IMG/VR virus record: IMGVR_UViG_3300037515_000929
Span: 1 to 42,454 of that record
Source of the DNA: a virus
Taxonomy: Duplodnaviria > Caudoviricetes
Strand: one strand, 5' to 3'
DNA length: 42,454 nt
In this document: one piece after another, positions 9,270-39,687 of the stretch
How positions within the stretch are numbered: the stretch's first letter is position 1
How the letters are laid out: every line of letters starts with the position of its first letter
Program-made: the position numbers and the translations under genes
The notes under the pieces: generated by a model
The model's input: the letters and a program-made list of their open reading frames with translations, nothing else
What the model was told of the DNA's origin: nothing
The model's database searches: none

Positions 9270-9680
9270 ATGGGAGACGGCCACAACACCGAGAACTACC
9301 AGGCCCAGGGCGGCGCGCTCTGGGTCGTGGGCCCGTCCGGGGCGCTGCGCGTCGAGGGCGAGCTCCAGGACGCGGCCGGGCTCGCTCAGAACGTGGTGCA
9401 CGGTACCGTCGCGGGCCTCGCGGTGGCCGTGGGCTCCGTGCTCGCGAGCCCGGCCGAGGCCGCCGTCGTCACGGGGCTCTCCGCCGTGACGGCCTTCTTC
9501 CCGACGCCCCGCGCCGGCGACGCCACCGAAGCCGCCATCCTCGCCCGGGGTCAGGAGCAGGCAAGCACCCCCGGCACGGTCGACGTCACGCGCTGGGAGC
9601 CGGCCGGAGCCAGCACCCCCGGCGTCGTGCCTGCAACCGTGGGCGGCGTGGTTGACTGGGTGGCCTTCGGGGACCGCTGA
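9270..9680 (+). CDS. Putative head fibre protein
   Basis: NTENYQAQGG...VVG N-terminus like head-fibre proteins; two ASTPG motifs; RBS AGGAG. Confidence 0.6.
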   Translation: MGDGHNTENYQAQGGALWVVGPSGALRVEGELQDAAGLAQNVVHGTVAGLAVAVGSVLASPAEAAVVTGLSAVTAFFPTPRAGDATEAAILARGQEQASTPGTVDVTRWEPAGASTPGVVPATVGGVVDWVAFGDR

Positions 9681-10703
9681 GTGCGCGTCCTTTTCATCTC
9701 GGACCACGGCTGCATCCGGGTCTTCAAGGAGGCCCAGGCGCTGCAGCTGCAAGGCGTCCGCGTCGACCTCGCCGCGCGTGTCCAGCCCTTCGGGGCGAAC
9801 ATCTTCGAGACTTTCAGCCTCCACCGGGACGCCGAGACGCTGAAGCGCGTGGTCGAGTCGACGCGCGCCGACGTCGTCCACGTCCACAACGAGCCCGACT
9901 GGATGGTCGGCGCAGCCCGCGAAGCGACTTCGAAGCCGATCGTCTTCGACGTCCACGACCTCACCTCGCTCCGTCACTCGAGCCAGCCCGACGAGCACGA
10001 GACCCGGGCCTTCGCGGAGGCGAACGGGATTATCCACGTCAGCGAGCCCTGCCGCGCGGCCGCGGAACGCCTCCACGGCAACGGCAAGCCCACGGGCGTG
10101 CTGCCGTGCCTGGTGAATCAGCGGTTCCTGGACGAGCCGCTCCCGAGGGAACCCTGCTGGGACGCCGTGGTCTACGAGGGCGGGCTCGACCCGACGCTCG
10201 AGCGCACCGACGGTGACGGTCGGCGCGTCGTGAGCGCGCGGGCGATCCATGCGGTGGTCCAGGCTTTCGCTCGCGAGGGCTTCCAGCCCTACCTCTACCC
10301 CGCTCAAGAGCGGTGGATCGATCCCACCTACATCTACGAGCGCCTGGGCGCGGTCGTCGCTCCTGGGAGGCTGGACTACCAGAGCCTCCTCCGAGCGCTC
10401 CGGGCCTACGGCTACGGCTTCGTCGGATCCCCGCACGACAGCCCTCTGATGCAGGCGGCGATGCCGAACAAGCTGTTCGAGTACATCTCCCAGGGCGTCG
10501 TGCCCGTGGTCCTCAACGCGGCCCGCGCGGCCGAGTTCGTGCGTGAGCACGGGCTCGGGATCGTGCTCGAGGGGCTGGAGAACCTGCGCGAGCAGCTGGA
10601 GCCGGGCCCGGAGGTGCGGCGCCGGATCCTCGAGCGCCGGCACGAGTGGACCATGGAGCGGCACATCGAGGCCGTCACCCGGGTCTACGAGGAGGTCGCA
10701 TGA
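9681..10703 (+). CDS. Glycosyltransferase, GT-B / GT4-like
   Basis: MRVLFIS, DVVHVHNEPDW, PIVFDVHDL, AMPNKLFEYISQGVVPVV. Confidence 0.9.
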   Translation: MRVLFISDHGCIRVFKEAQALQLQGVRVDLAARVQPFGANIFETFSLHRDAETLKRVVESTRADVVHVHNEPDWMVGAAREATSKPIVFDVHDLTSLRHSSQPDEHETRAFAEANGIIHVSEPCRAAAERLHGNGKPTGVLPCLVNQRFLDEPLPREPCWDAVVYEGGLDPTLERTDGDGRRVVSARAIHAVVQAFAREGFQPYLYPAQERWIDPTYIYERLGAVVAPGRLDYQSLLRALRAYGYGFVGSPHDSPLMQAAMPNKLFEYISQGVVPVVLNAARAAEFVREHGLGIVLEGLENLREQLEPGPEVRRRILERRHEWTMERHIEAVTRVYEEVA

Positions 10704-23566: not shown

Positions 23567-24607
23567 ATGGTCACGAGGAAGAGCAGCGTCTGGACGGAGG
23601 GCTACCCGCCGACCACGAGCCCGGCGGAGCCGCTCGACGAGGGCCCGATCAGGGACATCCACGACTCCATCCCGATCTCGCTCCTGGGCCAGAACTGGCT
23701 CCCGCCCCCGCACTTGTGGAGCGACGGCGCCTCGGCGGCGCCGGACTACTACCTCCCGCTCGGCACCGGCGTGGCGATCGCGCGCGAGACCACGATCGTG
23801 AAGATGCCCGGTTTCGGCGGGATCCAGTCGAGCGCGAAGGTCACGGCGGGCGGCGGTGACAACGGCTCGCTGCGGCACCGCTTCATCCAGCCGGGGAGCT
23901 TCGGCCGCTTCCACTTCCTGCGGGGCATGGACTTCAGCGTCGCCGTGTGGGTGAAGACGAGCGAGGTGGGGACCGTCCTGCTCATCGTCGACGACGGGGA
24001 CGTCCTCACGACCAGCACGGCCCACACGGGCTCTGGCACCGGCGGAGTCGACGGGGACGGCTGGGAGCTGCTACAGGTGACGCATCCGATCAGCGCAGCC
24101 GCCGATCGGCTCGAGTGCCGCGTCCGTGGCCCGGCCAGCTCGGTCTTCTACGTCGACGCCGGGATGGCCTGTCCCGGGCCGATCCGCCCCGCCGCCTGGC
24201 AGCCCTGCCCGACGATCGTCGCCCGTCTCCCCTGGGTCTACGCTGGAGGCCTGGCGGCCGGGAACGGCGCGCTCGACGTCCAGCACACCCTCGACCGTCC
24301 CGGACTCGCGGTGGCCTGGTACCTGCGGGCGAAGACGGGGCCCTCGGGTGCCGACTTCGAGGCGCAGTTCCGCAAGGGTGGCGCCACGGACCTCTTCAGC
24401 ACGGCCCCCACGATCGCGGACGGCCAGACGGTGGGGGAGGCGGGCGGGGTCTCCGGGGACTACCTGGCCCGCTGCCTCGGACGTCGCCAGTACGTCGAGC
24501 TCGACGTCGACACCGTCTCCGGCGTGGAAGGCCTGAACGCGCAGCTCGTCGTGATCCACCCCTGGCGTCCGCACGAGCACCTCCTCGACTTCGACGAGAT
24601 CGACTGA
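23567..24607 (+). CDS. Tail-associated protein, CBM-like
   Basis: FSVAVWVKT, HTGSG...WELLQVT, FYVD; tail module. Confidence 0.65.
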   Translation: MVTRKSSVWTEGYPPTTSPAEPLDEGPIRDIHDSIPISLLGQNWLPPPHLWSDGASAAPDYYLPLGTGVAIARETTIVKMPGFGGIQSSAKVTAGGGDNGSLRHRFIQPGSFGRFHFLRGMDFSVAVWVKTSEVGTVLLIVDDGDVLTTSTAHTGSGTGGVDGDGWELLQVTHPISAAADRLECRVRGPASSVFYVDAGMACPGPIRPAAWQPCPTIVARLPWVYAGGLAAGNGALDVQHTLDRPGLAVAWYLRAKTGPSGADFEAQFRKGGATDLFSTAPTIADGQTVGEAGGVSGDYLARCLGRRQYVELDVDTVSGVEGLNAQLVVIHPWRPHEHLLDFDEID

Positions 24608-25398
24608 TGCCCTTCGTCGCGACCCTCTTCCCGAACGCGAACAAGGACGACGGCACCGGCGGAGGGAACTGGGGTACCCAGGGCTCGTCGATCGGCGGCG
24701 GCGCCGCCTGGGAGCAGGTGAAGAGCGTCGACGGGGGCTACTGGGCGCGCGACGACGCCGGGAGCGAGTCGAGCTTCGCGACAGCCACTTTCTACCTCGA
24801 CGCCCTACCGGTGTTCGCGCGCCGCATCACGGGCGACCCTGCGGCGCCGCCGGTGAAGGTGCGCGGGTGGTGGCTCGAGACGTCGCCGGCGACGGATGTC
24901 GAGGCCACGCACGGGATCGGCTACAGCGCCGCGACCACCATACAGACGCCTTTTGCCGTGCCGGGCACGCCGGCCTCGGAGTTCTCCGCGTTTTCGGTCG
25001 CGGAGAACCCCGACGGCCCGCGGCCCTGGGTCGTGGAGGACTTCAAGGGGACCAGCTCGGACGCCTACGCGATCATCGAGGCCGAGCGTCCGGCGTCCGA
25101 CTACATCGGCTGCGACCGCGTGACGGTCGAGGTCCGCTTCGAGCGCGACCCCCAGGCGGGTATCTACGACCTGGTCGGGCCCTACCTTCCCCTGCCCCTC
25201 GCCGCGCTCCTCGGCGGCCTGGCCCACGCCCGCGTCGACCTGCGCGCCCTCGCCGGCGCCGTCTACCGGCTCTCGGGGCGTCGGCTCTGGTGGGACGTCG
25301 CCGAGGACCTGGAGCTCGAGCGGGAGCTGCGGTCGCTCCGGTGGCCCAGGGTGGTCGACCTCGGGTCGCGGCCGCGGCCGCGGCCGCTCCGCGCCTAG
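24607..25398 (+). CDS. Tail-associated hypothetical protein
   Basis: TGATG coupling; beta-rich N-terminal part; last late gene. Confidence 0.65.
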   Translation: MPFVATLFPNANKDDGTGGGNWGTQGSSIGGGAAWEQVKSVDGGYWARDDAGSESSFATATFYLDALPVFARRITGDPAAPPVKVRGWWLETSPATDVEATHGIGYSAATTIQTPFAVPGTPASEFSAFSVAENPDGPRPWVVEDFKGTSSDAYAIIEAERPASDYIGCDRVTVEVRFERDPQAGIYDLVGPYLPLPLAALLGGLAHARVDLRALAGAVYRLSGRRLWWDVAEDLELERELRSLRWPRVVDLGSRPRPRPLRA

Positions 25399-25838
25399 CG
25401 CGACAGCCTGAGCGCGTTGTTCGTCGCGTCCGCGACGGCGAGGACCGCGACAGCGACGGCGAGGATCCGCCCCCAGCGCCTGGTGCCGGCGTCGTCGCTC
25501 TTGATCATGCTGTCGAGCCCCCAGAGGGCGGCGCCGTAGAGCGCGGGCTTGGCCGCCCAGCGCGCGGCGCGGGAGCGCATCAGGGGGTTGCCCTCGGCGA
25601 GGCCCGGCCTGGCGAGAGCGACCTCCGTCAGGACGCTCGCCGTCGCGCCGCCGGCGATGGTCACGCCCCGGGTCCAGGAGGCGAAGGCCTGCGCCTCGTC
25701 GAGCTGGTCCGCCGTGATGATGCGGGCGATCGCCACGTCGGCGCGATCGGGCGGAGCAGGTGGCCCGGCCAGCTCGAGCGGAGCGGCCGGAGGGGAGAGA
25801 ACGGCCAGGACGACGGCCACGGCAGCGAGCTCGACCAC
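25395..25838 (-). CDS. Membrane protein with EGNPL motif (DUF5658-like)
   Basis: GTG start with GGAGG RBS; hydrophobic N-terminus; GLAEGNPLM; further TM helices. Confidence 0.7.
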   Translation of the reverse strand: MVELAAVAVVLAVLSPPAAPLELAGPPAPPDRADVAIARIITADQLDEAQAFASWTRGVTIAGGATASVLTEVALARPGLAEGNPLMRSRAARWAAKPALYGAALWGLDSMIKSDDAGTRRWGRILAVAVAVLAVADATNNALRLSR

Positions 25839-25860
25839 GGGTGCCTCCCGTGGTCGCTGA

Positions 25861-26085
25861 ACCGTCCCAGAGACCGTCCCGGAGCAACGTAAGCGACTGA
25901 GCCAGCTCTAAACGTCCCGGATTTTGAGTCCGGCGCGTCTGCCAGTTCCGCCACTCCGGCTGAGTGGTTTCAGCGACCTACAGCGATTTGGCCTCGGGCT
26001 AAACGCCCTAAACCAGGGTTATCCGTCTGAGAACCGTCCCAAGAACCGTCCCAAAGCACCGCTCGGGACCGCCCAGGACCGCCCA
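25861..26085. mobile_element. attP site
   Basis: Arm-type repeats ACCGTCCC at 25861, 25873, 26033, 26045; tandem GGACCGCCCA at 26066-26085; tRNA-derived core between them; next to the integrase 3' end. Confidence 0.85.
25917..25960 (-). tRNA. 5' half of tRNA-Leu(CAA), att core, not a full tRNA
   Basis: Minus strand GCCGGAG TG GCGGAACTGGCAGACGC G CCGGA CTCAAAA TCCGG: acceptor 5' strand, D arm and anticodon arm; no T arm follows. Confidence 0.9.
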
Positions 26086-26163
26086 CCAACCTACTACGGC
26101 TCGCCCGGACCGATGCCCAGGCCGGGGCCCGATCGTCGCTCCTGCGCCCCCTGATGCGGTCGG

Positions 26164-27312
26164 TCACTTCAGCTTCGCCCGCTTCCGGGCGGCCTCCCGG
26201 AGCGTCGCCTCGTCGACGATCGCGTAGCGCCGGTAGATCGCCTCGGTCGCGTGCCCGACCATCGCCATCGCCGCGGCGCGCGGCACCCCCGACCGCTCGA
26301 GGTTCCGGACCGCGGTGCGTCGGAAGTCGTGGAGGAGCTTCCCGGGCACCCCCGCCGCCCTGCAGGCGGCCCGCCAGGCGCCGTACATGCTCCGGATCTG
26401 CCGCCCGGAGCGGTGGAACACCCAGGGGCAGATCCGGGCCTCGCGCTGCTCGAGCACGTCCGTCCGCCGGCGCTGCTCGAGCAGGACCTGGCGCAGCTCG
26501 GGGAAGTCGCGGAACGGGAAGAGCCGGCCGCGGTGGTGGACGTCCTTCGTCTCGCCCGGATCGAGCCGGAGCCAGCCCTCCCGCAGGTCGACGTGCTTCC
26601 ACTGGCGGCTCAGCACCTCGCTCCGCCGCCAGCCGGTGAGGTAGTAGGTCAGGATCACGGGCCGGAGGTCCTCGTCCAGGTGGGGGAGGACGGCGTCGAG
26701 CTGGGGGCGCTCGAAGAAGCCCGCCCGCCCCGGCGGCTCCTGCAGCAGCTCCACGGGGGGGACGTAGCCGACCAGCCGCATCTTGTACCCGAGCCGGAAG
26801 GCGCGGCGGAGCGCCGCGAGCTCGCGGTTGACCGTGGCGTTCGCGGCGCCCTCGGCCAGGCGCGCCGTGACGTACCCCTGGATCCGCTCCGGGCCGATGG
26901 TGGCCGCTGGCTGCGTGCCGAAGGCCACCGTCAGGCGCTTCAGGCACCGGGTGACGTCGGCGATCGACCGGCGCCGGTTGGCGGCGTAGTCGCGCTCGAC
27001 GAGCTGCGCCAGGTCGGCCCAGGTCGTGCGCCGGAGCTCGGGGGAGACGAAGGCGCCGCGGTCGGCCGCCACCAGGCGCTTCCGCAGCAGCTCCTCGGCC
27101 TTCCGCACCTGGTGGCGCGGCAGGCCCGTGTTCTCCCGCACCACCCGCCCGCCGACGTAGTACTGGATCCGGATCGTCGGCCGGTCCTCGTCGAGGACGG
27201 TGCCGGTGCCGCGGCGGCCGCCCTTCTTCTCCGCCGGGAGGTCGCGGCCGCAGTGCCGGCACACGACCGCCGCCGCCTGGATCTCCTCGGCGCAGAACGG
27301 GCAGCGCTTCAT
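26164..27312 (-). CDS. int: Tyrosine integrase with N-terminal zinc ribbon
   Basis: TGWRRSE (R), GETK (K), HDFRR, VGH, IYRRY; ATVNRELAALRRAF; N-terminal CPFC...CRHC; RBS GAGGT. Confidence 0.95.
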   Translation of the reverse strand: MKRCPFCAEEIQAAAVVCRHCGRDLPAEKKGGRRGTGTVLDEDRPTIRIQYYVGGRVVRENTGLPRHQVRKAEELLRKRLVAADRGAFVSPELRRTTWADLAQLVERDYAANRRRSIADVTRCLKRLTVAFGTQPAATIGPERIQGYVTARLAEGAANATVNRELAALRRAFRLGYKMRLVGYVPPVELLQEPPGRAGFFERPQLDAVLPHLDEDLRPVILTYYLTGWRRSEVLSRQWKHVDLREGWLRLDPGETKDVHHRGRLFPFRDFPELRQVLLEQRRRTDVLEQREARICPWVFHRSGRQIRSMYGAWRAACRAAGVPGKLLHDFRRTAVRNLERSGVPRAAAMAMVGHATEAIYRRYAIVDEATLREAARKRAKLK

Positions 27313-27389
27313 GGGACCTCTTCACTGGAGACTAACGCACGAGGGTCGCAGCTCGAACAGAACGGCGGCCCAGGGCGGAGCCTGCGGGA

Positions 27390-27412
27390 ACCCTGACGGA
27401 ATATGTCAGGGT
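27390..27412. promoter_or_regulatory. Inverted repeat ACCCTGAC-N7-GTCAGGGT between RHH gene and int
   Basis: Perfect 8-bp arms; operator or RNA hairpin. Confidence 0.45.
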
Positions 27413-27447
27413 GCGCCGCACACCCTGCCCGCCCCTCATGCGTCGAC

Positions 27448-27618
27448 CTAAGCTCCCTTGCGCTTCAGGTAGTCGGCCAGGGCCTCATTCACGGTCGCCT
27501 GCAACGTCGTGTCGTGCTCCACGGCGTAGCGGCGCGCCCGCTTGTGCAGGTCCGGCTCTAGCCGTATCGACGTCGGCTGCAACAACCCTTCTTTCGCTCT
27601 CGGTCTTGCCTTCGCCAT
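27448..27618 (-). CDS. Ribbon-helix-helix DNA-binding protein, candidate repressor
   Basis: TSIRL-EPDLHKRARRYAVEHDTTLQATVNEALADYL; G-rich RBS; codirectional with int. Confidence 0.85.
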   Translation of the reverse strand: MAKARPRAKEGLLQPTSIRLEPDLHKRARRYAVEHDTTLQATVNEALADYLKRKGA

Positions 27619-27636
27619 CGACGATGGCCCCCCCTT

Positions 27637-27716
27637 GTGGCGCACCCAATATAGAACGTGAGCGTGGTATAGCGCAAGTCCTATTGCTTGACGTGGCGCA
27701 ATAGCGCACGTAGTAT
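27637..27716. promoter_or_regulatory. Divergent promoters with RTRGCGCA boxes
   Basis: Rightward TTGACG (27688) N17 TAGTAT (27711); leftward TTGCGC N18 TATATT (27677 to 27648); boxes at 27637, 27669, 27693, 27701. Confidence 0.7.
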
Positions 27717-27741
27717 GTAGTGCGAGGCAAGAGTAAGGAAG

Positions 27742-28251
27742 ATGGCTGCGCCGAAGCGTGTCACCGACAACGAGGTAGTCCAGGCCATCAGGTGTTGGCG
27801 CGGCAACGTCGCCGCGGCGGCGGATGTCCTCGGGATGCAGCCTCGAAACCTCCGGAAACGCTTGGACTCGCTACAGGTCGACCTCGAGCGGATCCGCGAG
27901 GAGAGCCTAAAGGACCCGGTCCTATCGAAGGGACCCGGTCCTATCGGCCCCAAGGCGGCCACCGAGGCTCGATCTGTAGTCGAGTCCTTTCCACGGCGCA
28001 TCGCAGTCACTAGCTTGGCTCACGTGAACGACGCGGCTACCGCCGAGCTCCCGATCAAGGCGATTCGTCCGAGGCGGACGCCGCTGCGGCTGCTCCCAGA
28101 GCACCAGGACCAGCTCCGGGACGCCAAGCTGGACTTCGGCGCCCGCTTCCGGCTGGAGACTGACGAGAACGCGATCCTCAACCAGTTCTTCGAGGAGGAG
28201 TTCGAGGCATGGCGGACGAAGAAGCTCGACAGGACCGAGGGTGGCGAGTGA
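27742..28251 (+). CDS. Fis-type HTH regulator, possible C-terminal RHH
   Basis: AIRCWRGNVAAAADVLGMQPRNLRKRL; first gene of the early operon. Confidence 0.8.
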   Translation: MAAPKRVTDNEVVQAIRCWRGNVAAAADVLGMQPRNLRKRLDSLQVDLERIREESLKDPVLSKGPGPIGPKAATEARSVVESFPRRIAVTSLAHVNDAATAELPIKAIRPRRTPLRLLPEHQDQLRDAKLDFGARFRLETDENAILNQFFEEEFEAWRTKKLDRTEGGE

Positions 28252-34757: not shown

Positions 34758-35298
34758 GGACCGGCTGCAGCTGCGCGCCCTGAGCCTCACTCAGCCCTGG
34801 GCCTCGCTGGTCGCCCTCGGCGTCAAGCGTCTCGAGACGCGCTCGTGGCAAACCGCCCACCGGGGCCCTCTCGCGATCCACGCGTCGTGGGGCTTCCCCC
34901 CGTCCGCCCGGCGCCTGTGCGAGGAGGAGCCTTTCCTCCGTCTCCTCGACGGGGCAGGCCTCGACGAGGACACACTCCCTCGCCGGGCCGTGCTCGGCGT
35001 CTGTCGGCTGCTGGGCTGCCATCTCATCACCGAGCTCGAGGCGCAGCGCATTGCCCACCTCGGGGCCGGTGAAGAGCTCCACCTGGGCGTCCGCTTCGGC
35101 GCCGCCGTCGTCACCCGCGTCGAGGCCGCGCTCGGCGACTTCAGCGCACGCCGCTACGCCTGGACGCTGAGCGAGCCGCGGCTCTTCAGCCGGCCGTCAC
35201 CGGCTTCCGGCCGTCTGGGCGTCTGGCGGTGGGAGACGCCGGTCAACTTCCGCGACCTCGAGCCTGAGATCGCGGCCCTACTCCAGGAGGGTCGGTGA
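34750..35298 (+). CDS. ASCH domain protein
   Basis: ALSLTQPWASLVALGVKRLETRSW, RGPLAIHAS, GRLGVW. Confidence 0.92.
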   Translation: MGEDRLQLRALSLTQPWASLVALGVKRLETRSWQTAHRGPLAIHASWGFPPSARRLCEEEPFLRLLDGAGLDEDTLPRRAVLGVCRLLGCHLITELEAQRIAHLGAGEELHLGVRFGAAVVTRVEAALGDFSARRYAWTLSEPRLFSRPSPASGRLGVWRWETPVNFRDLEPEIAALLQEGR

Positions 35299-35570
35299 GC
35301 GAGAGCGAGACGCCGCAGCAGCGGGCACTCCGGATCGTCCGGCTCGAGGTGGAGCGGAGCGGGGGCACCCCCGGGGAGGTGACGCTCTCGACGCCCCTGC
35401 GGGACCTGGGGTTCGACTCTCTCGACCTGCTCGAGCTCCAGGTCTCCCTCGAGGACGAGTTCGATGTCGAGATCCCTGCCCCCGTCGTCCAGCCCGACTG
35501 GATCGTTGCCGGTACTACGGTCGGGGAGCTGATCCTCCAGGTCGTGGGGCGAGAGCAGGGCAGCGCATGA
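35295..35570 (+). CDS. Acyl carrier protein
   Basis: LRDLGFDSLDLLELQVSLEDEFDVEIP...TVGEL; phosphopantetheine Ser codon at 35418-35420. Confidence 0.9.
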   Translation: MSESETPQQRALRIVRLEVERSGGTPGEVTLSTPLRDLGFDSLDLLELQVSLEDEFDVEIPAPVVQPDWIVAGTTVGELILQVVGREQGSA

Positions 35571-36169
35571 GGAACCCGCGCGAGCGCCTGGTGCGCCACG
35601 TCCAGGAGCTGGAGCGCCTCGAGGAGGCGAAGCGCGAGGCCGCGGATCGGCTGCGCGACGCCTACAAGGCGGCCGGCGACAACGGCTTCGACGTCGGGAC
35701 GATCAAGGTGGTGCTCCGGCTCCGGCGCATGACGCCGGCGCAGCGCCAGGAGAAGCGGGCCCTCGAGGCGATCTACATGGCAGCCCTCGGGATGCTCGAG
35801 GGCGAGCCGCTTCCGGACGAGGCCCGCCGCCGCCTGGACGACCGGCCGCCGCCGGCCGAGGAGGCGCCTGGGCGGACCTCCACCGACGCCAGGCCAGCGC
35901 CTCCCCCTGACCCGGCGCCCGGTCAGATCCCGATGGAGCTGAAGGACCCGGCCGAGGCGCGCGCCGAGGGCAGCGCCGCGGCCGAGGAAGGGAAGCGCAT
36001 CTACGACAACCCCTATCCCGCAGGCGACCCCTGCCGCGCCGCCTGGGACGAGGGCTGGTGCGCGAAGAAGAAGTCTCACGGCATGGAGACCCCGGCGGCG
36101 TACCAGCGACGGACGGCGAAGAAGCCGGACGCCGAGGAGGACGCCGGCGAGAAGAAGGGAGCGTCCTGA
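35567..36169 (+). CDS. GapR (DUF2312)-like protein fused to an Rmf-like domain
   Basis: LERLEEAK...AYKAAGDNGFDVGTIKVVLRLRR...YMAALGM; then EG..AA..GK...NPY...RAAWDEGW. Confidence 0.8.
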   Translation: MRNPRERLVRHVQELERLEEAKREAADRLRDAYKAAGDNGFDVGTIKVVLRLRRMTPAQRQEKRALEAIYMAALGMLEGEPLPDEARRRLDDRPPPAEEAPGRTSTDARPAPPPDPAPGQIPMELKDPAEARAEGSAAAEEGKRIYDNPYPAGDPCRAAWDEGWCAKKKSHGMETPAAYQRRTAKKPDAEEDAGEKKGAS

Positions 36170-37966: not shown

Positions 37967-39687
37967 GCGTGATGCTGAAGGTGGGCGCCGGGTTCCAGCT
38001 CGCGATCGAGCACGTCGAGGACGTGGTCGCGATCATCGGCCGCCGCGGCCGCGGGAAGACGTCGACCGCTACCGTGCTCGTCGAGGAGCTCCACCGCGCG
38101 CGGCACCGGTTCTGCGTCGCGGATCCCGTCGGCGTCTGGCACGGGCTCAAGTCCTCGAGTGACGGGAAGTCCCCGGGTCTCCCGGCGATCGTGATGGGCG
38201 GCGATCACGGGGACGTCCCCCTCGAGGCGACGGCGGGGCGCGTGATCGCCGACTTCGTCGCGACCTCGGACAGCTCCGTCGTCCTCGACTTCCTGCACTT
38301 CCGCAAGGCCCACATGAGCCGCTTCATGACCGACTTCCTCGAGGAGCTCTACACGAAGAACCGGCGGGCGCTCCACCTGGTGCTCGACGAGGCCGACAAG
38401 TTCATCCCGCAGCGCGTCGACGGCAGCAACGCGCAGCTGGTCGGCGCCGCCGAGGACGTCGTGAAGATGGGCCGGGCCCGGGGGCTGCTGCCCATCCTCA
38501 TCACGCAGCGGCCAGCCTCGCTCAACAAGAACGCGCTCTCGCAGGCGGGTCTGCTGATCGCGCACGGCCTGACCTCGCCGCACGACCGCAAGGCCGTCGA
38601 CCTCTGGGTGAGGGAGAACGCCACCGAGGAGCAGCGCAAGGCCTTCCACGCCTCGCTCGCCGGGCTCGACCGGGGCGTCGCGTGGTTCTGGCAGCCGGAG
38701 GCCGAGATCTTCCGCCAGGTGTCCGTGCGGGCGCGCACCACGTTCGACTCGTCGTCGACGCCGAAGGCCGGGGGCCATCGCGCCGCGCCGAAGGTCGTCG
38801 CGCAGGTCGACCTGGAGCAGCTCGAGCAGCGGATCCGGTCGACCATCGAGGAGCGGAAGGCGAACGACCCGAAGGAGCTGCGGCGCCGTATCGGCGAGCT
38901 CGAGCGCCAGCTGGCGAAGCCGACCACGCCGGCGCCGGCGACGGTGGAGCGGGTCGAGGTCCCCATCCTGGAGGCGCCCACGGTGAAGCGCCTCGAGGCC
39001 GCGCTCGTGAAGGTGGACCGCCAAGGCGCGCGCCTTTCCGGCGACGTCCTCCGCCTGGTCGAGCTGCACGATGACATCAGAGCCCGCCTGGCGGATGTCC
39101 GGTCAGCTCTGGCCGGGCCTTTCGAGCGCGCCCGCCCGCCGGCGGCGCCGCCGCGCGCATCGACGACGCCAGCGCCGCCTCGTGCTGCCCCTCGGTCGGC
39201 GCAGGGATCCGGCAAGGCCGTCGGGGGAGGCATGCAGCGGATCCTCGTCGCTCTCGCCCAGCGGCCGCAGGGGCTGACGATCAAGCAGGTCGCGCTACGC
39301 GCGGGGCTGTCCAGCCGGAGCGGCACCTTCTCGACGTACGTCAGCCGCTGCCGCCAGCAGGGCTGGATCGCGGGCGGCAGCAAGGAGGTCCTCCGGATCA
39401 CGGATGAGGGGCTCGAGGCGCTGGGGCCCTTCGAGCCCCTGCCCACGGGTGCCGGGCTCCTCGCCTACTGGTCGAGCCAGCTCGGAGGTGGCGCCTCGAG
39501 GCTCCTCGAGGCGGTCGCTGCCGCCTACCCTGCCGAGCTGAGCAACGACGAGGCCTCGGCAGCCGCGGGCCTCTCTGGGCGCAGCGGCACCTTCTCGACG
39601 TACGTGAGCCGCCTGCGAGGGCTGCAGCTGATCGAGGGCGCCCGCGGGAGCGGCCGCCTGCGCGCGTCCGCTGAGCTCTTCGAGTGA
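37963..39687 (+). CDS. HerA/FtsK-like ATPase with coiled coil and two wHTH repeats
   Basis: GRRGRGKT, LDEAD, GRARG, TQRPA; GLS(S/G)RSGTFSTYVSR twice. Confidence 0.88.
   Translation: MSVMLKVGAGFQLAIEHVEDVVAIIGRRGRGKTSTATVLVEELHRARHRFCVADPVGVWHGLKSSSDGKSPGLPAIVMGGDHGDVPLEATAGRVIADFVATSDSSVVLDFLHFRKAHMSRFMTDFLEELYTKNRRALHLVLDEADKFIPQRVDGSNAQLVGAAEDVVKMGRARGLLPILITQRPASLNKNALSQAGLLIAHGLTSPHDRKAVDLWVRENATEEQRKAFHASLAGLDRGVAWFWQPEAEIFRQVSVRARTTFDSSSTPKAGGHRAAPKVVAQVDLEQLEQRIRSTIEERKANDPKELRRRIGELERQLAKPTTPAPATVERVEVPILEAPTVKRLEAALVKVDRQGARLSGDVLRLVELHDDIRARLADVRSALAGPFERARPPAAPPRASTTPAPPRAAPRSAQGSGKAVGGGMQRILVALAQRPQGLTIKQVALRAGLSSRSGTFSTYVSRCRQQGWIAGGSKEVLRITDEGLEALGPFEPLPTGAGLLAYWSSQLGGGASRLLEAVAAAYPAELSNDEASAAAGLSGRSGTFSTYVSRLRGLQLIEGARGSGRLRASAELFE

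Follow-up and report, generated by a model that had tools for sequence, protein, structure and literature searches.

Genomic islands bearing a fragment from the 5' end of their target tRNA gene were catalogued in Islander, in which 5' tDNA fragments occur in 159 of 3,919 islands (Hudson, Lau, Williams 2015, PMC4383910); the available part of that text says nothing on promoters. In the archaeal pTN3, the 5' half of tRNA-Leu(CAA) is used over 41 bp of identity, and the accessible portion of the report describes the tRNA as "separated from its original promoter" (Cossu 2017, PMC5495485). According to excerpts of a later review, pTN3-like integrases bring the recombinant tRNA under their own promoter, int(C) could in turn be driven by the promoter of tRNA-Leu, and use of the 5' half is seldom met in bacteria (Badel 2021, PMC8371274). 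The dusA and prfC islands (IMEVchUSA3, SXT) take the place of a host gene's 5' end and provide a new promoter, which at dusA was measured and found weaker than the native one (excerpts of PMC8409611). Promoter exchange on 5'-half tRNA integration is already described, uncommon and not new.

Here we describe a bacterial siphovirus whose attachment site carries the 5' half of tRNA-Leu(CAA), and we place it in a soil and sediment integrase family in which 5'-half tRNA integration is frequent, has arisen repeatedly and sometimes yields tandem arrays.

A temperate siphovirus with a 5'-half tRNA attachment site

The window, by which we mean the whole 42,454-nt stretch of viral DNA analysed, has ends joined by a terminal overlap of 139 nt with 1 mismatch and encodes, besides an integrase, a terminase, portal, protease, capsid (HK97-type head), tape measure and endolysin; from this overlap and these structural, packaging and lysis genes it is a whole temperate siphovirus, circular and in the excised attP form. 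A glycosyltransferase gene lies amid the head genes (9681-10703), a GapR-like DNA-binding protein is encoded at 35295-35570, and the ORF at 35567-36169 has, by eye, the look of an acyl-carrier protein. A tRNA-Leu(GAG) called by ARAGORN at 38674-38763 was rejected, as it sits within an ORF and lacks Rfam support.

The order given in the original prediction for the minus strand, namely integrase, arm repeats, tRNA piece, arm repeats and then the gene that we call EGNPL, was confirmed, with all elements codirectional (Table 1). The extent stated there for the core, nt 1-44 of tRNA-Leu(CAA) up to the end of the anticodon stem, proved exact: when the full 89-nt tRNA-Leu(CAA) of an Acidobacteriota genome (G233) was aligned with the window, nt 1-44 matched at 100% (E 1.7e-18), and because no alignment elsewhere in the window was better than E 1.4, the 3' half of the tRNA is absent and the core is single-copy. 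The core lies 203 nt downstream of the int stop codon, leaving int intact. Judged by its sequence, with a tyrosine integrase encoded beside the site and a terminal 5' piece identical to a host gene unaccompanied by a 3' half, this attP is a member of the 5'-fragment tRNA class.

Table 1. Positions of the features discussed, in the window unless another contig is named
Feature	Position	Strand	Remarks
EGNPL protein, 147 aa, hydrophobic	25395..25838	-	stop overlaps the stop of a convergent late gene
Perfect 10-bp hairpin	25832..25856	-	spans the EGNPL GTG start and some of its Shine-Dalgarno; no U tract
Distal (P') arm, tandem putative arm-type repeats	25859..25889	-	doubled motif 25880/25868
Weak promoter-like pair in P'	25886..25912	-	4/6 + 3/6 matches, 15-nt spacer; by eye, not called by scan
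attP identity block, tRNA-Leu(CAA) nt 1-44	25917..25960	-	44 nt; begins at 25960, int stop at 26164
Predicted 7-nt overlap (anticodon loop)	25928-25922	-	inside the identity block
Degenerate YAAnnnnTTGA-like motif copy	25970..25980	-	motif known from P arms of relatives
Int-proximal (P) arm, tandem putative arm-type repeats	26031..26061	-	doubled motif 26052/26040
Tyrosine integrase, 382 aa	26164..27312	-	Phage_integrase E 2.9e-11; PHROG 1 integrase E 1.6e-41
Candidate promoter upstream of int	27329..27357	-	spacing and TAnnnT retained in L165
Ribbon-helix-helix repressor-like gene	27448..27645	-	codirectional with int
Divergent promoter-like pair	27648..27716		leftward 27677-27648 (repressor-int), rightward 27688-27716 (early genes)
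Apparent tandem array, Arg-CCT	G306:C9 95038-129057
Apparent tandem array, Arg-TCT	G309:C17 105281-115811
Apparent tandem array, Leu-TAA	G001:C10 522489-535504

By analogy with lambda-type att anatomy, the repeats on either side of the core would serve as arm-type sites; their 8-mer has just 6 occurrences genome-wide, 4 of them in the two arms. A further motif, YAAnnnnTTGA, which we take to be IHF-like, is found with at most one mismatch in 15/23 arms of the 5' class versus 42/85 arms of the 3' class; an IHF consensus scan at the att motifs gave 3 mismatches for the window copy, not beyond chance, and a scan of viral sequences for a Leu 5' half linked to the upstream motif returned 0 matches.

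The first 25 residues of the integrase (27312-27238, minus strand) form a zinc ribbon resembling UPF0547. A sister phage, L165, encodes a separate zinc-ribbon membrane cargo gene within the corresponding operon, and this shared operon position suggests that the int module may have been swapped in and fused to the start of a cargo gene. The promoters proposed upstream of int and of the repressor are weak consensus guesses: the leftward site matches the consensus at 3/6 and 5/6 positions, and the int leader is about 80% conserved overall with L165, so that the promoter spacing retained there counts as weak support. The leader itself (27448-27313; 6490-6640 in L165), lying between the ribbon-helix-helix repressor and the next gene, is structured and keeps a 7-bp hairpin while the loop varies, possibly a regulatory RNA or operator.

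Candidate hosts and nearest relatives

Searching for the host with the 44-nt core, as originally proposed, yielded exact tRNA matches in Acidobacteriota but did not fix a single host. Of 301 Acidobacteriota genomes sampled, one (G233) has the exact core, a slightly relaxed pattern matched 53 of the 201 genomes of the same order, and 10 of 30 loci fetched from these 201 genomes again had the exact core. Each of the ten exact-core genomes has one copy of the tRNA, whose identity with the phage stops at nt 44, and a TATACT -10 element lies 10-45 nt upstream of it; GC around the G233 locus is 72%, similar to the phage. The host is left unassigned because the exact core also occurs in a viral contig (L004) behind an unrelated integrase, because no match to the phage capsid at E<=1e-60 turned up among the 201 genomes, and because none of the contigs of 4 DNA runs over positions 24500-28000 spans the 44-nt core or contains an attL or attR junction. 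A look-up of RNA data sets listed none with this region.

Among relatives with a readable attachment site the nearest is L192, whose integrase (67% identical) is sister to that of the window with 100% tree support. It has the same layout of integrase, arm, tRNA-Leu 5' half and arm, and the tRNA 5' half is 100% identical over 44 nt in both; the gene downstream differs from EGNPL. In L191, encoding a 91%-identical integrase, no tRNA core was found in the 1.5 kb downstream, so the integrase is not tied to the tRNA site. The region 870-1400 of L191, with neither core nor arms, holds two near-consensus sigma-70 promoters with a shared palindromic spacer, and small genes. The near-identical integrase of L191 and the lack of a junction among the contigs would both fit a 44-nt block that is a relic or a chance capture in a phage integrating elsewhere or nowhere; arms on both sides of the core, host identity ending at nt 44, the attP of L192 and the many integrated relatives described below argue against this reading, which we regard as highly improbable.

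The sister phage L165 shares 79% nucleotide identity with the window across the tail region. Its EGNPL protein is 85% identical in amino acids; the gene adjoins an unrelated, oppositely oriented integrase and sits among accessory genes on the strand of the repressor, pointing away from attP. At 9630-9900, L165 has an attP-like region in which arm repeats flank both sides of a core, and a strong Shine-Dalgarno with an ATG within the region opens a frame through the arm into EGNPL (P0124). This might be a site at which a protein gene of the host has its 5' end replaced, or it may be chance. Comparison of this core with Rfam gave chance-level matches only, with no tRNA core found. No close viral relative of the L165 integrase was found, and its relatives at 31-37% identity sit at tRNA 3' halves, without any sequence match.

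Integrated relatives and repeated changes of core orientation

Of 521 genome loci found with the integrase alignment, we examined the best 80. The usual 3' class, in which an intact tRNA or tmRNA converges on int, accounts for 44 of these 80; a codirectional intact tRNA stands behind int in 11, an inverted 5' fragment lies beside int in 2, other tRNA pieces occur in 5 and no piece in 18. The 5' class thereby makes up 13/80 of the best genome loci and 13/62 of those with a tRNA piece. When 8 of the 11 genomes with a codirectional tRNA were searched for the displaced piece, a 5' fragment was found in 6, one case being ambiguous at a contig end and one yielding none. The fragment lies upstream on the same contig at 11.6 kb (G003), 13.0 kb (G001) or 29 kb (G306), and on a different contig, with arm repeats matching by eye, in G004, G307 and G308; further cases of the 5' class are G309 and a viral contig (L357/L358).

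In 4 of the 10 pairs compared, identity between fragment and tRNA stops precisely at the 3' end of the anticodon loop, and in the others it runs on for 1-3 nt; this points to a crossover in the loop, as the original prediction had it. The integrated relatives also display the two consequences that had been proposed, an intact tRNA rebuilt downstream of int and a host promoter left before a 5' fragment, and for this phage we predict from its sequence that integration would likewise rebuild the tRNA behind the integrase.

Several loci depart from this simple arrangement. Elements of the 5' class appear to be stacked in tandem upstream of a single tRNA in G001, G306 and G309 (Table 1). A fourth geometry is seen in L008 and L083, where the 5' fragment at int is inverted and the host promoter would oppose the 3' end of the integrase. 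In L174 (G003:C21 near 62478), an ORF, presumably resembling trigger factor, directly follows the rebuilt tRNA-Leu(TAG), and a 5'-class element could alter its transcription. In two low-GC proviruses (L313, L360), the promoter before a Leu(TAA) 5' fragment looks native and codirectional ORFs come after the fragment; in L313 these include an integrase, so that the host tRNA promoter may point into int.

The orientation of the core was mapped on a FastTree phylogeny of 105 distinct integrases, 16 of whose rows are of the 5' class; the tree left out sequences with <33% identity, no tRNA piece, an internal match, <200 aa or duplicates, as well as those with the piece >330 nt away (L009 was kept). 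These 16 rows require 13 changes, of which starred branches force at least 9, compared with a mean of 15.2 changes for shuffled labels, 21 of 500 shuffles being as low as the observed 13. Core orientation has thus switched many times across the family and is not the mark of a single clade. In a scan of viral sequences for Leu(YAA) 5' halves, 76 loci were recovered. The integrase is upstream and codirectional at 6 of them and convergent at 10, with one locus counted in both groups, and 3 of the Leu(YAA) loci were judged by eye to be true 5' fragments. What is new here is the high frequency (13/80 loci) and the repeated origin of the 5' class in this integrase family, along with two patterns of insulation among the relatives, taken up in the Discussion.

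Transcription of the rebuilt tRNA

A tRNA rebuilt behind int is likely to come under phage transcription, as motif scans would have it. Among 27 presumed native tRNA genes, 19 have a -10-like hexamer (score >=4) in the 60 nt upstream, and such a hexamer lies within the same distance in 11/23 P arms of the 5' class versus 10/85 arms of the 3' class (Fisher p 4e-4), a comparison in which the rows are related and the windows lie at differing distances from the crossover. In the 60 nt before the core, neither a TAnnnT nor a -10-like hexamer is present in the window or in L192; the closest TAnnnT to the window core is 127 nt away and without a -35. A terminator scan of 25200-27900, an interval that takes in the stretch from int to the core, found none. 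Given a P arm that lacks a -10-like hexamer within 60 nt, and with no terminator found to separate int from the core, we infer that the rebuilt tRNA would be transcribed through read-through of the leftward repressor-int transcript. Read-through would not be a rule of the family, since 11 of the 23 5'-class arms possess a -10-like hexamer of their own.

The window could also simply have no working promoter for the rebuilt tRNA. Integration would then lower or silence a tRNA-Leu(CAA) left largely orphaned, which would be tolerated as tRNA-Leu(UAA) reads UUG. tRNA-Leu(UAA) decodes UUG via wobble, and E. coli with leuX disrupted stays viable. The missing TAnnnT upstream of the core in the window and L192 would agree with this reading, as would the presence of tRNA-Leu(UAA) in 4 of 5 candidate-host genomes; disrupting leuX in E. 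coli is reported to alter the translation of FimB (excerpt of PMC11316696). The 100% identity over 44 nt in the window and L192, in contrast, exceeds what recombination over loop and stem needs, which argues that a working tRNA is selected, and no terminator was found that would block read-through from int. An orphaned tRNA is unlikely in our judgement, if the least so of the alternatives. The dependence of UUG decoding on the rebuilt tRNA, which had been part of the original prediction, holds to the extent that candidate hosts have a single tRNA-Leu(CAA), but is softened because the tRNA-Leu(UAA) of 4/5 genomes also reads UUG.

A more elaborate possibility is a lysogeny loop, in which the only host tRNA-Leu(CAA) would end a repressor-int transcript whose repressor gene is UUG-rich, tuning both the repressor and UUG decoding, and the freed host promoter would feed a hairpin-gated EGNPL. 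UUG accounts for 3 of the 7 Leu codons in the repressor gene against 20/699 across 20 phage genes; however, the genes neighbouring the repressor have 2/17 and 4/25, and with so few codons to count and a raised local background we hold such a loop to be improbable. If it were true, together with the repeated flips, promoter takeover at tRNA genes would be a common bacterial strategy and not a rarity. Our best guess for the rebuilt tRNA is transcription by repressor-int read-through.

The gene beyond the attachment site

EGNPL belongs to a real family, with homologues at 90% and 85% identity and 8 representatives, and has hydrophobic stretches at the N- and C-terminus. The window protein matches DUF5658 (PF18902) at E 0.12 and 13.6 bits, under the cut-off of 25.2 for membership; among the aligned members, 5/8 match DUF5658 at E<=1 (best 2.5e-6), in a common region around the E-x-N-P motif. 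EGNPL was not found in 251 Acidobacteriota genomes, and the ESM Atlas offered only leads under 0.8.

The original prediction held that integration gives EGNPL the host tRNA promoter and makes it lysogen-specific. As a selected switch, this would produce a lysogen-specific membrane protein (for example for superinfection exclusion), with the hairpin gating its translation. The geometry permits it: the host tRNA has a TATACT -10, EGNPL starts 79 nt past the core, and since no U-tract terminator was found in the window between the core and EGNPL, read-through from the host is physically possible; EGNPL also points away from attP in L165. An evolved switch was nevertheless not borne out by the relatives, in which the cargo gene is not linked to the type of attachment site: L165 has EGNPL next to an unrelated integrase with no tRNA core found, and in L192 a tRNA-type attP precedes another gene. 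Read-through is moreover cut off in some of them, as a U-tract terminator follows the displaced fragment in 3 clear cases and 1 doubtful case among 9 relatives, against 1 of 93 background windows. In the window, the hairpin (-20.3 kcal/mol, 1 of 5 such hairpins genome-wide) occludes the EGNPL start, the predicted unpaired probability of the start codon being ~0 in long and short transcripts alike, and the weak pair in P' is a possible phage promoter for EGNPL. A selected, lysogen-specific EGNPL switch is possible but unsupported, and we rate it as decidedly unlikely. In the partial collection of literature consulted, there is no study of a cargo gene capturing a host promoter at a 5'-half tRNA attL of a bacterial phage.

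Discussion

The account that we favour, and consider probable as a whole, combines a 5'-half attP, crossover in the loop, a tRNA transcribed by repressor-int read-through and EGNPL as an accessory gene. The phage attP holds the 5' half of tRNA-Leu(CAA), and the tyrosine integrase would cross over in the anticodon loop; a complete tRNA would then be restored immediately behind int, and the 5' fragment would be all that follows the host promoter at the original tRNA start. The exchange of promoters may then be a by-product of repeatedly flipping the orientation of the core. EGNPL would be an accessory gene on the lysogenic strand, older than this att module, and the hairpin at its start probably damps read-through from the host and is not a switch.

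Each element of the 5' class must supply transcription for the tRNA and handle a strong, inward-pointing host promoter. Two apparent solutions are seen among the relatives, one being a -10 element within the P arm and the other a terminator behind the fragment, and the integrase family offers a testable model both for changes in target orientation and for takeover of tRNA expression by prophages.

As far as the available parts of the published descriptions go, the 5'-fragment islands of Islander are like the window in having a tyrosine integrase, a tRNA target, a displaced upstream 5' fragment and a restored gene, and their 159 of 3,919 may be set against the 13 of 80 loci in the integrase family of the window, the two denominators being different. 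The dusA and prfC islands resemble the window in the replacement of a 5' end; in the sections at hand their targets are protein genes, whereas ours is a tRNA gene, for which a new promoter is predicted. The pTN3/TKV4 type, in the portions of the literature consulted, shares with the window the 5' half of tRNA-Leu(CAA) and has an exchange of promoters like the one predicted here. The attP of pTN3, however, lies within int, which is split on integration, whereas that of the window lies outside an intact int, between lambda-like arms, in a bacterial siphovirus; because its attP is outside the int ORF, the window does not encode a suicidal integrase of the pTN3/SSV type.
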